In this document: positions 21,001 to 27,000 of the stretch, piece after piece
Numbering within the stretch: position 1 is the first letter of the stretch
How the letters are laid out: each line of letters begins with the position of its first letter
Assembly (NCBI RefSeq): GCF_050320075.1
Contig: NZ_CP190018.1
Source of the DNA: Escherichia coli
GTDB taxonomy: Bacteria > Pseudomonadota > Gammaproteobacteria > Enterobacterales > Enterobacteriaceae
Length of the DNA: 64,000 nucleotides
Strand: one strand, 5' to 3'
Program-made: the position numbers

Positions 21001-24000
21001 ATCCTCAAAGCTGAAGGTGAAAAACAGTCGCAAATCCTGAAAGCGGAAGGCGAACGTCAGTCGGCGTTTTTACAGGCTGAAGCGCGTGAACGTTCTGCCG
21101 AAGCAGAAGCCCGCGCCACCAAAATGGTGTCTGAAGCTATCGCCTCCGGTGATATTCAGGCGGTGAACTACTTCGTAGCGCAGAAATACACCGAAGCGTT
21201 ACAGCAGATCGGTTCCTCCAGTAACAGCAAAGTAGTGATGATGCCATTAGAGGCCAGCAGCCTGATGGGGTCGATTGCCGGGATTGCCGAGCTGGTGAAA
21301 GACAGCGCCAACAAACGGACTCAGCCATGATGGAGTTAATGGTCGTTCATCCACATATTTTCTGGCTCAGTCTCGGCGGGTTGTTGCTGGCAGCCGAGAT
21401 GCTGGGCGGAAATGGTTATTTGTTGTGGAGCGGCGTGGCCGCGGTGATTACCGGCCTGGTAGTCTGGCTGGTGCCGCTGGGTTGGGAGTGGCAAGGAGTA
21501 ATGTTTGCCATCCTGACGCTGCTCGCCGCCTGGCTGTGGTGGAAATGGTTGTCGCGGCGGGTGCGCGAACAAAAGCACAGCGATAGTCATTTAAACCAGC
21601 GGGGGCAGCAGCTGATTGGTCGACGTTTTGTGCTGGAATCACCGCTGGTCAATGGGCGAGGTCATATGCGCGTCGGCGACAGTTCATGGCCTGTCAGCGC
21701 CAGCGAGGATCTCAGTGCAGGTACGCATGTTGAGGTGATTGCGATAGAAGGGATAACGCTGATTATCCGTGCGGTCATCGCCTGATGCGACGCTGATGCG
21801 TCTTTTCATGCCTACAAAATATGCCCGAATTGTAGGCCGGATAAGGCGTTTACGCCGCATCCGGCGGTTATGCGCTGATGCCTGATGCGGCGCGGGCGCG
21901 TCTTATCATGCCTGGAAGTCTGCGCCCGAATCGTAGGCCGCCTCCGCTATATTAACTGGCATTGGCAAATTACTCGTCACTACCTTTATTCATGTTTTTT
22001 TGGTCTTCATCCGGATAATGTTTTTTTAGATATTCCAGGACGTTTTTATTGACCTTGTGTTGCGTATACACCCACCCTTTCCAGTAATCAGGCTGGTCCA
22101 GGTAAACTTCTGGCGGAATGGTGAAATCAGAAAGCGTTAACCATTCGGCTAACAGATCGGGGTTTCGTTTCTGGATTAACTGCAACAGCATAATCAGTGA
22201 CATAGCTGAGGCAGGAGCCGTACTATCACCACTCAAATATTTCCACACTGTTGACCGGTTCGAACGAAAAAGGATCGGTAGCAATGCCCGGTCCAGATTC
22301 ATTTCATTAAAAATCTTCTCAAATTCATTCATTTAAATTTTCCTGCCTGGCGTAAACCTCTTAAAAATTGAGATTTATCAAAGAAACGCATTTTAGCACA
22401 CATCAGGAACCGCTTCACGTTTAGTCCAGAAACAGAATTTATTTCGCTTATCAAAACAAGTCTTTACTCTTTTTTACATTGAAAGAGCACAAAATGATTT
22501 TCGATTTTATTTATATAAGAAACATTTTTTGTTTCTTATTGGTGGTGTTTACGCTTACACCAGACAAAAATGCGCTTTACATCACACAAATGGCGGCGTA
22601 GATTTCGATCAAATTGCAACGCAGTTTATTTCTTAAAACAATATTATTTGTTTCTTATAGAAACATTAATGCGACTTATTTTGAACAAGAGAAAATGAAT
22701 GAAAACTGTAAACGTAGCTTTACTGGCACTCATAATTTCAGCAACATCCAGCCCTGTTGTTTTAGCTGGTGATACCATTGAAGCGGCGGCAACAGAGCTT
22801 TCAGCCATTAACTCTGGCATGTCGCAATCGGAGATTGAGCAGAAGATTACCCGCTTTTTAGAACGCACAGACAACAGCCCCGCTGCGTATACCTATTTGA
22901 CTGAACATCACTACATCCCTTCTGAAACACCTGATACCACTCAGACTCCCACTGTCCAGACAGATCCTGACGCAGGACAAAAAACCGTTGCCGCTACAGG
23001 TGATGTACAGACAACCGCCCGTTATCAGAGCATGATCAACGCCCGACAGTCTGCGGTAACTGATGCCCAGCAAACGCAAATTACAGAGCAACAGGCGCAG
23101 ATCGTAGCCACACAAAAAACGCTCGCCGCGACTGGAGATACGCAAAATACTGCGCATTATCAGGAGATGATTAATGCCAGACTGGCGGCTCAAAATGAGG
23201 CTAATCAGCGCACTACCACGGAACAAGGGCAGAAAATGAATGCACTGACAACCGATGTGGCAGCACAACAGCAAAAAGAAAGGGCTCAATACGATAAACA
23301 AATGCAAAGTCTGGCGCAGAAGTCTGTCCAGGCACATGAGCAAATTGAAAGTCTGAGACAAGATTCCGCACAAACGCAGCAACAGTTAACCAACACGCAA
23401 AAACGGGTCGCAGATAACAGCCAACAAATTAACACGCTCAATAACCATTTCGATTCTCTGAAAAACGAAGTTGAGGACAATCGTAAAGAAGCCAATGCGG
23501 GAACTGCATCAGCCATCGCTATCGCCTCACAACCACAGGTGAAAACCGGTGACTTGATGATGGTGTCAGCGGGAGCGGGAACCTTCAACGGTGAATCTGC
23601 GGTGTCTGTAGGAACATCTTTTAATGCCGGAACGCATACGGTACTTAAAGCAGGTATTTCTGCGGATACACAATCTGATTTCGGTGCGGGTGTCGGCGTG
23701 GGATATTCGTTCTAATTTTAACAGCAATTTCTTATTCGCAATTTTCCGTACATTATTTAAGGTTAACAATGATGAATAGCTCCATTAAATCGTTTTCCCT
23801 GCTGGCGGTTATATTACTGGCTGGCTGTAGTTCACCCACTTCCCGCATCGCAGATTGCCAGGCGCAGGGCGTCAGCCATGACACCTGTTATCTCGCAGAA
23901 CAACAGCGTCAGACGGCTATTTTAAGTGCATCCGAGGCGCAGGCATTTAAAAATGCAGAAGCCGCACAACATGCCCAGGCGGCAAAGAAAGCCATTTATA

Positions 24001-27000
24001 AAGGATTTGGAATGACCTTTAGAATGAGCAGTAAAAACTTTGCTTATCTCAATGATTCATTATGTGCAATTGATGAAGACAATAAAGATGCCACTGTTTA
24101 TCAGTCAGGTCTGTATAACGTCATTGTTTATCATCACACAGGAAAAGTCGCCTTAATGAAGGAAGGTCAATTTGTGGGTTATTTAAAATGAAGGAGCAAA
24201 GGAAAATACCCCTGACGCATATTATGATTATCGGTGCGTTTATTTTTGCCTTCTTGCAAGTAGTATTATTAGCCTCCCTGGTTCACGCTGTGAATGTTAA
24301 CAACGAAATCCAGGAAGGCTTATTTCAGTCGGGGCGCATTATGGTAGAAAGTTTGCAGCATATTCTTTCGGTGCAAACGGGGATTAACTGATTTTCACCC
24401 CGCCCGATGATGACAGCAGCCGGAGAGATTTTCGATAATCGGGCAGTCGGCGCTGTCATCGCCAGGGCAGGCATTCGCCAGCGCCAACAGCTGGTTGCGC
24501 ATGGATTGCAGCTCCTCAATGTGTCGTTCGATCTCCGCCACTTTCTCCAGGGTGCGCCGTTTTACATCGGCGCTGTGACGCTGCGGGTCGTTAAACAGAT
24601 TCACCAGTTCGCCGCTCTCTTCCAGGTTAAAGCCCACCTGGCGCGCCTGGCGCAGTAAGGTCAGTTCGTTGAGATGCTGCTGCGTGTAGGTTCGATAACC
24701 ATTTTCGCTACGCATCGGCGGCGTCACCAGCCCCTTCTCTTCATAGAAGCGGATTGCTTTGCTGGTCAGGCCGGTAATTTTTGCTACATCGCTAATGTTC
24801 ATCGTTCGCGCAACGCCTCCTGTGCTTTGTTAAAGGGTTTCAACAGATAATCCAGCACGCTTTTTTTGCCGGTGCGGATATCGACCGTCGCCACCATACC
24901 GGGAAATATCGGAAATTGCTGTTTGCTTTTGTTTTCCAGATGGTTGCTGAAAGTGCGAATGTACACCCGATAGTAATAAACATCGCGCCGTACTTCATCC
25001 TGCACGGTGTCTGGTGATATCACCGCCACTTCTCCCGGCAGGCCGCCGTAGATGGAGTAATCGTAGGCGGTTATTTTCACCAGCGATTTTTGCCCCGGAT
25101 GGATAAACGCCACATCGCGCGGGGAGATTTTTGCCTCGATCAGCAGTTGCTCATCCAGCGGCACGATGGTCATCAGTTTACCACCGGGGGCAATAACGCC
25201 GCCAACCGTGGTGACGTCAATGTCCTGAACAATGCCACGTACCGGCGCGGTAAAGTTGAGCCGGGTGAGAGAATCTTCCCGCCCGCGGATCACCGAACGC
25301 TGGGTTTCTACTTCCGCATTGGCTTTCGCTAACTCTTCCCGCGCCTGTACGTAGTATTGCGTGCGCACGTCGCTGAGTTTGTTTTCCAGTTCATTGGCCT
25401 GGCGTTGCAGGCGCAGCACTTCAACGCTGCTCGCCGCCCCCTGTTTTACCAGCGGCTGGGTCATCGCCAGTTCGCGGTTGACCAGGCTAATCCCCTGCGT
25501 CAGCCCGGTGGTGGCTTTGTTCAGCCCATCGCGGCGAGTGTTGTACAACGCCGTTTCCGACTCGATAAGTTCGGGGAATTTATTCAGTTCGTCAGGGAAG
25601 ACCAGCGGTTTATTACTCACTTCCGCCCGCAGCCGCGCCGAGGTTGCCAGCGCCGCGTACAGCCGCGACATTGCTTCCTGGACGTCGGATTCCGTTTTGG
25701 TGCGGTTAAGCTGCGCCAGCGGCTGGCCCTGTTCAACAATATCGCCAACCTTGACGTCGAGATGATACAGAATTCCGCCTTCCAGCGACTGCACCACCTG
25801 TTCGCGCCCGGAAGGTTCTACCGTGCCGCTGCCGGTGGTGACTTCATCAAGCTGGAAGTACCACGCCCAGCCGAGAAAACAGAGCAGCATCACAGCGGTA
25901 ACGCGTACCGCCAGCGCCGAACGCGGCAGGCGGGGTTCAGTCAGGCCACGGTTGTATTGCAGTTGTCCATTCATGCGGCAGACCCCTTATTCTTCTCCTG
26001 CAACACCACCCGTCGCGTCGTGGGTTCGCCCTGTTCACGCAAAATGGCCTCTTTCGCGCCATCCATCACAATCCGCCCCTGATCCATCACGATAATGCGG
26101 TCCACCAGTTGCAGCATCGCCGTGCGGTGAGTGGCGATAATCAGCGTGCGATGGCCAATCCACTGTTTCAGTTGTTCGATTAAATACGCTTCTGCCATTT
26201 CATCCAGCGAGGCGCTGGGTTCATCGAGCAGCACGATATTGGGTTGAGAGATGAGAAGCCGCGCCAGCAGCAGCGTTTGCCGCTGACCGCCAGAAAGACC
26301 AAATCCCCCTTCCTGAATCATGTAGTTGAGGCCGTTTTTCTGCTTCTGCACAAACGGCAGCGCCCCGCTGAGGGTTAATGCGCGTTCGATATCTTCATCG
26401 CTGGCCTCCGGCATCCCCATCGTCAGGTTTTCCCGCAGCGAGCCGAAAAACAGTCGTCCGGTCTGGCTCAGTAGCCCCATGTCGCGGCGCAGATCTGCCG
26501 GATCAAGCTGCCCGATACTGATGTTATCCAGTAGCACCTGCCCCTGCTGGGCGATACGCATTCCGGCGAGCATTTGCAGTAGCGTTGATTTACCCGCGCC
26601 GTTGCGCCCGAGAATGGCGATTTTCTCTCCGGCCTGGATGTTGAGTTTGCCAATCGCCACATCGGCAATTTTCTCTTCTTCATCGTAATAAAAGATAGCG
26701 TTGCTGAACTGATAATTGCCGTGTAGCACCGCTTTATGCACCAGTTTGCCGTGTTCCGGCTGATCCACCGGGCGCTTCATCAGTTCATCAAGTCCGTTGC
26801 GCGCCACTTTCGCCTGCTGCCAGCGCGAGAGCACACTGGATATCTGCGACAGCGGCGCGATGGTGCGCGAAGCCAGGATCGTCGTCCCGACCAGCGCGCC
26901 GGTAGTCATGTCACCGTTCATTACCATAAAGCAGCCCACCAACAGCACCACGACGTAGACGATGGATTGCACTTCCTGCGTCCAGGTGAGCAGTAGCCCG

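Follow-up and report, generated by a model that had tools for sequence, protein, structure and literature searches.

Trimeric autotransporters (type Vc secretion) such as the adhesins YadA, Hia and AtaA combine a signal peptide with a coiled-coil segment that runs into a 60-residue YadA_anchor and ends in an aromatic residue. Two kinds of partner are described for them: SadB, a small lipoprotein that improves display of the trimeric autotransporter SadA in Salmonella and Escherichia coli, and TpgA, a periplasmic, peptidoglycan-binding protein genetically linked to AtaA. Here we analyzed a gene cassette in a 64,000-nucleotide stretch of E. coli DNA (RefSeq assembly GCF_050320075.1, contig NZ_CP190018.1; hereafter the window). 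It occupies a 2.6-kb islet between ybbJ and cueR that is already known as O-island 29 of O157:H7 EDL933 and S-loop 43 of Sakai, and its central gene (z0639, ECs0548) has been published as the flagellar activator gmrA. Judging from sequence, we think it likely that the islet encodes an outer-membrane trimeric fibre together with envelope partners and a private regulator. Our confidence in any specific role for these proteins is much lower.

The islet consists of a repetitive extragenic palindromic (REP) cluster and four intact open reading frames (ORFs):

21780..21950, no strand: REP/bacterial interspersed mosaic element (BIME) cluster, the left 170 bp of the islet, beginning over the ybbJ stop codon
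21970..22332, minus strand: 120-residue protein (z0640 of EDL933), probable Xre/Cro-type helix-turn-helix regulator, divergent from the autotransporter operon
22333..22698, no strand: divergent regulatory region, 366 bp, AT-rich
22699..23715, plus strand: 338-residue putative YadA-family trimeric autotransporter (z0639)
23533..23712, plus strand: its membrane anchor, residues 279-338, ending ...GVGVGYSF
23769..24191, plus strand: 140-residue lipoprotein (z0638)
24188..24391, plus strand: 67-residue single-pass membrane peptide

The 338-residue protein has a complete YadA-type anchor

Assignment of the 338-residue protein was carried by its C-terminus. The Pfam family YadA_anchor (PF03895) aligned over its full length (positions 1-60 of 60) with residues 279-338 (E=1.6e-11), and the sequence also matched the anchors of the solved structures of AtaA (5e-7), Hia (4e-6) and YadA (0.04) in the PDB. 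PHROG 17426, labelled 'adhesin', matched at 7e-22. The Prokaryotic Genome Annotation Pipeline (PGAP) names the protein 'YadA family autotransporter adhesin', and UniRef entries are likewise called YadA family or 'adhesin', a label that is itself inferred. Composition and primer identity with gmrA (see below) completed the assignment.

At the opposite end, residues 1-23 form a predicted Sec signal peptide, whose start carries positive charge and which has a hydrophobic core and a cleavage-type motif (VLA/G). This N-terminus (MKTVNVALLALIISATSSPVVLA/GD) is the sole hydrophobic segment of the protein and its only Kyte-Doolittle peak above 1.6. Equivalent signal-type N-termini were present in six of the seven relatives compared, the exception (locus L004; comparison loci are cited by L number) being an N-terminally truncated start chosen by PGAP. 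All seven kept a terminal aromatic residue (F, W or Y), as does the window protein, which ends ...GYSF.

Between these ends lie a conserved N-terminal domain (residues ~24-70), a Pro/Thr-rich linker (71-92) and a stalk (93-276; ~185 residues) that contains no proline at all. Glutamine makes up 16.7% of the passenger, which includes a 40-residue internal duplication (~92-131 versus 137-176; score 117, shuffles 31 +/- 6), and residues 100-270 gave many weak matches to coiled-coil families. The mature protein is acidic (pI 4.9). Pfam identified the anchor alone, with no head, neck or stalk domain, in both this protein and a longer ~594-residue allele.

With a predicted signal peptide and a predicted outer-membrane anchor, a cytoplasmic location is not supported for this protein. 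It would be exported by Sec, and three copies contributing four C-terminal strands each would form a 12-stranded outer-membrane barrel put together by the beta-barrel assembly machinery. The N-terminal ~250 residues would then emerge as a mostly coiled-coil fibre with the small conserved domain as its cap.

The islet is O-island 29, and its central gene is gmrA

In Yang et al. (2018), O-island 29 measures 2,643 bp and contains z0638, z0639 and z0640. The EDL933 island shares its ybbJ-cueR locus, genes and gene order with the window islet, and an O157-like strain was 95% identical to the latter over 99% of its length. The 67-residue gene is not among the three listed for EDL933. Published deletion primers place the names exactly: the gmrA (z0639) arms flank the 338-residue ORF, the z0638 arm falls at the lipoprotein stop and the z0640 arm at the start of the 120-residue gene. 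The gmrA cloning primer (Yang et al. 2018) starts ATGAAAACTGTAAACGTAGCTTTA, which is window 22699-22722. The window strain itself is not O157; it is identical over the islet query (21700-24450) to strain 746, a canine isolate, in which PGAP calls the same ORFs. In the adhesion gene list of Ogura et al. (2007), Sakai ECs0548 appears as a 'Saa-like protein'; UTI89 and APEC O1 have it, and CFT073, 536, O26, O111 and O103 lack it.

A different function was assigned by Yang et al. (2018), who named the z0639 product GmrA, an activator that binds the fliA promoter. Deletion of the gene lowered motility, flagella number and the fliA, fliC and motA transcripts, and the gene alone complemented; full motility required gmrA in eight strains. 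Tagged protein bound the fliA promoter, but not flhDC or rpoS, in electrophoretic mobility shift assays (EMSA) with competition, and chromatin immunoprecipitation with quantitative PCR (ChIP-qPCR) of tagged protein gave 7.75-fold enrichment of that promoter. A DNA-binding domain was cited from a conserved-domain search. Deletion of z0638 had no motility effect (Yang et al. 2018). All three EDL933 genes are transcribed in Dulbecco's modified Eagle's medium (20-96 reads per kilobase per million mapped reads). No paper in the literature searched joins the GmrA and autotransporter descriptions of this gene.

Were GmrA a cytoplasmic activator that raises flagellar synthesis from the fliA promoter, its autotransporter likeness would be irrelevant or would reflect a second role. 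The deletion phenotypes, complementation, EMSA, ChIP-qPCR and breadth across eight strains all favour that explanation, yet we consider it very unlikely to be right. The protein has a signal peptide and a complete membrane anchor, its mature form is acidic, and neither Pfam nor NCBIfam contains a DNA-binding domain that matches it. The only nucleic-acid-related matches were weak alignments of the coiled-coil stretch to SMC, MukB/JetC and DndD arms, which may be what the published conserved-domain search reported.

The design of the tagged proteins also matters. According to the primers, the protein used for EMSA retained its full length and had a His tag at the N-terminus, before the signal peptide, and the ChIP construct placed 3xFLAG immediately behind the terminal ...GYSF. 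In type V secretion, a tag before the signal peptide or after the terminal Phe is expected to keep a protein off its normal pathway. Either design would thus probably stop export or assembly of the barrel, leaving the protein in the cytoplasm. The published genetics are sound evidence that gmrA affects motility; they show a requirement for the gene, not a mechanism. A direct DNA-binding mechanism is hard to reconcile with the sequence of the 338-residue protein, and the motility phenotype is more likely an indirect envelope effect.

Boundaries and composition of the islet

In K-12 MG1655, cueR ends at 514400 and ybbJ begins at 514401, so that the two genes abut convergently with adjacent stop codons. 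In the window, ybbJ ends at 21785 and cueR (24395-24802, minus strand) lies beyond 24394; as the genes abut in MG1655, the intervening 2,609 bp (21786-24394) are inserted here. The islet has a GC content of 43.7%, compared to 54.7% for the whole window, with a 31% GC core between the first two genes (22333-22698).

The REP cluster contains two 34-nt REP-type direct repeats (21780-21813 and 21880-21913) and an Rfam naRNA4 match (RF02564, 21835-21912; 71.9 bits, gathering score 59.5), besides which Rfam found nothing in the islet. This part of the islet query matched many places in nearly all E. coli genomes. For the islet we found no integrase or phage gene, no tRNA gene and no direct repeats at its flanks. 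Among the usual marks of a lateral island, it thus shows absence from K-12 and deviant composition, but not mobility genes, a tRNA target or flanking repeats. PADLOC returned only coiled-coil artefacts, and a defence system was rejected; a phage origin of the three genes other than the 338-residue ORF was rejected likewise, as PHROGs gave only marginal matches to them.

These results bear on an earlier note on this DNA, made from sequence alone, which placed a 2.6-kb AT-rich islet with a REP cluster and four ORFs between two genes that are adjacent and convergent in K-12. That outline was accurate in each respect, as was its account of a signal peptide, a Q-rich passenger with a duplication and a YadA-type anchor, and of a lipoprotein gene 53 bp downstream coupled through ATGA to a 67-residue membrane protein. 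Its description of the autotransporter as unusually small was overstated. Relatives of ~290-293 residues occur in Enterobacter asburiae and Yersinia aleksiciae loci, and the 338-residue form is a short allele.

A lipoprotein and a coupled membrane peptide follow the autotransporter

The lipoprotein gene lies on the same strand as the autotransporter gene, 53 bp beyond its stop codon (23715 to 23769). The product has an LLAGC lipobox, conserved Cys30 and Cys40, a helix (residues 37-69) and a C-terminal eight-stranded beta domain (75-139). Ser at position +2 predicts sorting to the outer membrane. The family is small and restricted to Enterobacterales; its members have in common the Cys of the lipobox, another pair of conserved Cys, a long helix rich in Ala and Gln, and a beta domain at the C-terminus. 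Pfam gave zero matches, which includes BamE and OmpA-like domains. NCBIfam matches (TraV, 'XAC1346 family secretion chaperone' and alanine-zipper lipoproteins) were sub-threshold, covered only the signal peptide and first helix, and were set aside; nothing was found in the literature on XAC1346.

Parts of the lipoprotein also occur separately. Its N-terminal 65 residues (lipobox plus a CxxxGxSxDxCY helix hairpin) correspond to free-standing lipoproteins of ~67-70 residues in many genera (L040-L067; Buttiauxella, Atlantibacter, Aeromonas, Pseudomonas and others), and the C-terminal beta domain stands alone in proteins of ~100-126 residues in AFDB50.

The ATG of the 67-residue gene (24188) overlaps the lipoprotein TGA (24189-24191). 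The peptide has one strong hydrophobic segment (residues 14-32; Kyte-Doolittle 19-residue mean 2.65) preceded by K2, R5 and K6. Homologues follow the lipoprotein in L006, L008 and L017-L019 and the autotransporter in L012. Most likely, the outer-membrane lipoprotein and the coupled inner-membrane peptide would act as envelope partners of the fibre, in its biogenesis or stabilisation.

A divergent gene may encode the regulator of the cassette

The 120-residue protein belongs to a tiny orphan family, with 24 representative clusters among 1.84 billion proteins. Its own best Pfam match was the helix-turn-helix region of MqsA (E=0.12, marginal). Individual homologues matched Xre-like-HTH, MqsA_antitoxin, HTH_3 and HTH_26 at 3e-5 to 4.5e-4, and hhalign to MqsA gave E=0.001 with a probability of 21%. 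A PDB profile search with the family produced chance-level matches only. One further match to the family profile, a 2,772-residue repetitive surface protein, was discarded as the product of low-complexity repeats. Wherever homologues were found, they lay divergently upstream of an autotransporter-type operon, including one beside qmcA-ybbJ-cueR. The 120-residue protein is likely the DNA binder of the cassette and would be its own Xre-type helix-turn-helix regulator.

The divergent region is recognizable from its composition (31% GC) and from blocks conserved across six otherwise diverged loci. It contains the following candidate elements:

22390..22398, minus strand: candidate extended -10 element TGCTAAAAT of the 120-residue gene, read from the sequence with low certainty
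22515..22539, no strand: inverted repeat ATAAGAAACA-TTTTT-TGTTTCTTAT (repeat families D2 and I1), candidate operator upstream of the promoter
22576..22604, plus strand: candidate sigma-70 promoter of the autotransporter operon, TTTACA-17 nt-TAGATT, from a consensus scan
22649..22665, no strand: palindrome TGTTTCT-TAT-AGAAACA, candidate operator in the predicted 5' leader of the autotransporter gene

The block GCTTTACATCACA...GGCGTAGATT, which comprises the promoter, was the best conserved of the six-locus alignment and almost invariant. An ATTTTA.CAC block corresponding to the extended -10-like element was also conserved, and a two-hexamer promoter scan gave no match for that element. The palindrome is the single exact match to GTTTC-N3-7-GAAAC in the 64-kb window, where 0.38 are expected by chance. 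Two exact copies occur in the equivalent region of the unrelated locus L012, with degenerate copies in L008, L010 and L013. The 120-residue protein probably binds these GTTTCT/AGAAAC inverted repeats on either side of the operon promoter.

Distribution and history of the cassette

The islet was at least 80% covered in 1,368 of 5,426 complete E. coli genomes. Other E. coli carry the long allele (~594 residues), which has two extra repeats of ~123 residues and whose specific DNA was present in 351 genomes. PGAP starts this allele too late, at an internal TTG, to give a 349-residue 'YadA-like family protein' that lacks a signal peptide; upstream of this TTG the frame stays open as far as a regular Met and signal-peptide start, for a total of ~594 residues (L004 3900-5702; L016 3235-4284). 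Some islets hold an additional gene between the 67/68-residue gene and cueR:

L004 (E. coli JX21CE8), 6501-7724: 407-residue orphan gene
L017 and L019, 5715-6932: 407-residue orphan gene

This gene had no Pfam, PHROG or PADLOC match. It was full length in 271 complete E. coli genomes and also present in E. whittamii and Escherichia sp. E1V33. A ~700-bp remnant was found in ~695 more genomes; those sampled were otherwise without the cassette, and the remnant was frameshifted where inspected.

The full set of genes occupies the same site in E. whittamii and a cryptic Escherichia clade. Beyond Escherichia, the order of divergent regulator, autotransporter, lipoprotein and peptide recurs at various chromosomal sites in Pseudocitrobacter, Enterobacter, Rahnella, Yersinia aleksiciae, Ewingella and metagenomic Enterobacterales, with passengers of ~290 to ~745 residues. 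Pseudocitrobacter faecalis has a divergent small ORF, an anchor-bearing protein, a lipoprotein and a small peptide in this order, and one metagenomic enterobacterium has the cassette between fetA and qmcA. The Enterobacter asburiae cassette is without the small genes.

The P. faecalis locus (L006 1801-5532) contains two tandem surface-protein genes (633 and 588 residues) ahead of the lipoprotein. The first shares the small N-terminal domain of the E. coli protein (40% identity over ~75 residues). A gene for a serine recombinase is found 1.5 kb downstream of this cassette.

A link to one neighbourhood was apparent, as the cassette adjoins qmcA-ybbJ-cueR in Escherichia, Pseudocitrobacter, Symbiopectobacterium and Serratia. 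We therefore regard the islet as an accessory cassette long resident in this neighbourhood of Enterobacterales. Yang et al. (2018) proposed four gains of O-island 29. Given the absence of mobility genes and the recurrent qmcA-ybbJ link in other genera, a cassette that was present in the ancestor and lost repeatedly is at least as likely.

The same evidence makes it most improbable that the islet is a prophage or mobile-element remnant whose 338-residue protein once served a phage in its tail or in host recognition. PHROG families with adhesin or tail-protein labels do match this protein (7e-22 and 8.5e-14), phage-encoded proteins are 33-42% identical over its C-terminal 110-190 residues, the islet lies 11 GC points below the window, and the Pseudocitrobacter copy is near a serine recombinase. 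Such an origin sits poorly with an islet that lacks integrase, tRNA gene, phage gene and flanking direct repeats, with the long residence implied by the qmcA-ybbJ-cueR link across four genera, and with occupation of the same site in E. whittamii and the cryptic clade.

A scan of species-representative genomes yielded 51 loci, ~26 of which had a full-length lipoprotein. The anchor gene was immediately upstream in 13 of these by profile and in two more by inspection of the C-terminus, such that in ~15 of 26 the lipoprotein gene starts within ~330 bp after the autotransporter gene on the same strand. With ~10 of the 26 standing alone, the link between lipoprotein and autotransporter is frequent, not obligate. 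Proteins directly upstream of the lipoprotein in L021 (2813-4387; 524 residues) and L022 (3104-4966; 620 residues) end ...GFSGDF and ...GLSGDF, respectively; they were missed by the anchor profile and may have a divergent anchor type.

These counts bear on whether the lipoprotein and peptide genes serve the envelope independently, for instance as a PliC/MliC-like periplasmic inhibitor, and are mere neighbours of the autotransporter without a part in its biogenesis or function. We find this doubtful. The solitary lipoprotein loci are what it would predict, the Cys-helix part and the beta domain each also occur alone elsewhere, and z0638 deletion left motility unaffected. It accounts less well for ~15 of 26 loci pairing the lipoprotein with an upstream autotransporter in several genera and at different chromosomal sites. 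Nor does it fit the shared decay of the two genes in Candidatus Symbiopectobacterium (L010 4520-5621), where the autotransporter is truncated at 174 residues before the anchor and the lipoprotein is split into 64 and 115 residues. The 109-residue regulator-like gene of that locus is intact and 82% identical to that of E. coli.

Weighing the fibre cassette

Several observations weigh against a fibre with envelope partners and a private regulator. These include the EMSA and ChIP-qPCR results that assign the 338-residue protein a DNA-binding role, and the finding that island deletion leaves adherence to HeLa and Caco-2 cells unchanged (Yang et al. 2018). For the partners, these are the ~10 of 26 full-length lipoprotein loci without an adjoining autotransporter, the absence of similarity between the lipoprotein and the known helpers SadB and TpgA, and the detection of the 67-residue type of peptide in some loci only. 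For the regulator, no single helix-turn-helix score is significant for the E. coli 120-residue protein alone, and its predicted structure is of low confidence, so that its fold matches are only suggestive. The exact palindrome is weakly above chance (31 of 100 shuffles have at least one); with statistics this weak, we relied on its conservation across loci.

The fibre cassette nonetheless remains our preferred reading. A more ambitious form of it is rather unlikely, in our estimation. Here the four genes would constitute an undescribed trans-envelope unit of headless trimeric autotransporter, outer-membrane lipoprotein, coupled inner-membrane peptide and private helix-turn-helix regulator. The lipoprotein and peptide would together add a third class to the autotransporter partners SadB and TpgA, and a signal of whether the fibre is present, or of its state, would pass through the envelope to flagellar gene expression. 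If true, such a relay would account for the reported effect on motility without requiring an outer-membrane protein to bind DNA.

The island, with its putative adhesin, has stood in catalogues for two decades, and we add no new element to what is known of E. coli. What the finding offers is a correction: reviews cite as a flagellar transcription factor a gene with the full sequence signature of an outer-membrane fibre. The accessory cassette of lipoprotein, peptide and probable private regulator around the autotransporter was previously undescribed. If our reading is right, the mechanism of the motility phenotype in enterohaemorrhagic, enteropathogenic, avian pathogenic and meningitis strains needs re-examination, and the conserved accessory genes and private regulator become interesting parts of the cassette.

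The earlier note foresaw some of this and overlooked the rest. Its proposal of a three-gene surface module is strengthened by the finding of autotransporter, lipoprotein and peptide in this succession elsewhere, both in other genera and at other sites, and a second adhesin system does lie past cueR. The profile search that it suggested for anchor and stalk domains found the former and no Pfam stalk domain. The ORFs for which it recognized no core-genome identity are absent from K-12 at this position; the three larger ones are the catalogued genes of O-island 29, one of them called 'Saa-like' since at least 2007. The named island, the GmrA publication and the helix-turn-helix-like character of the fourth ORF were missed.

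Neighbouring loci

Beyond cueR, a type I secretion locus occupies window 24799-50000 and further. Its genes include a TolC-family gene and the following:

24799-25974: HlyD adaptor
25971-28133: permease/ATPase
28137-48911: giant 'BapA-related adhesin SiiEA', a 20.8-kb gene

In K-12, ybaT follows cueR in place of this locus. Strain AGR4587, the one H8-type strain inspected, is without the autotransporter cassette and has a frameshifted gene fragment between cueR and ybaT at the HlyD position. Elsewhere in the window, the annotation has a small toxin gene of the dinQ type between mnmH and ybbP (13055-13138). In K-12 the mnmH-ybbP interval contains the rhsD cluster, which appears to be absent here.

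Comparison with known systems

The 338-residue protein shares with YadA, Hia and AtaA the anchor, the terminal aromatic residue and a predicted signal peptide, and its stalk is probably a coiled coil that runs into the anchor. It differs in having no Pfam head, neck or stalk and in the Pro/Thr-rich linker between its small N-terminal domain and stalk, and no adhesion phenotype is known for it, in contrast to these adhesins. Saa and Eib belong to the same anchor family, which accounts for the historical 'Saa-like' label. A plasmid protein search gave no close Saa-type match and did not support a specific closeness to Saa; beyond E. coli chromosomal copies, its best matches covered only the C-terminal 29-40%, so that similarity to Saa and Eib is confined to the anchor and adjacent stalk.

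Compared to the MqsA C-terminal domain and Xre/Cro proteins, the 120-residue family has an extra conserved C-terminal half without known counterpart. A 2026 global survey of autotransporter helpers required a head domain; as none was found here, genes of the islet type were missed by it.

Among the helpers, TpgA resembles the islet lipoprotein in being an envelope accessory with genetic linkage to a trimeric autotransporter, but the lipoprotein is without the BamE or OmpA-like domain. The coiled coil and MATH-like sandwich of SadB/YajI gave no sign of homology to the islet lipoprotein. SadB is encoded upstream of its autotransporter and has nine heptads and a MATH-like beta sandwich of ~100 residues, whereas the islet lipoprotein is encoded downstream and has a helix of ~33 residues and a barrel of ~65. 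Both are nevertheless small lipoproteins with an N-terminal helix followed by a beta domain, both are encoded in an operon with an enterobacterial trimeric autotransporter, and a joint loss of the two genes in K-12 is a further common point.

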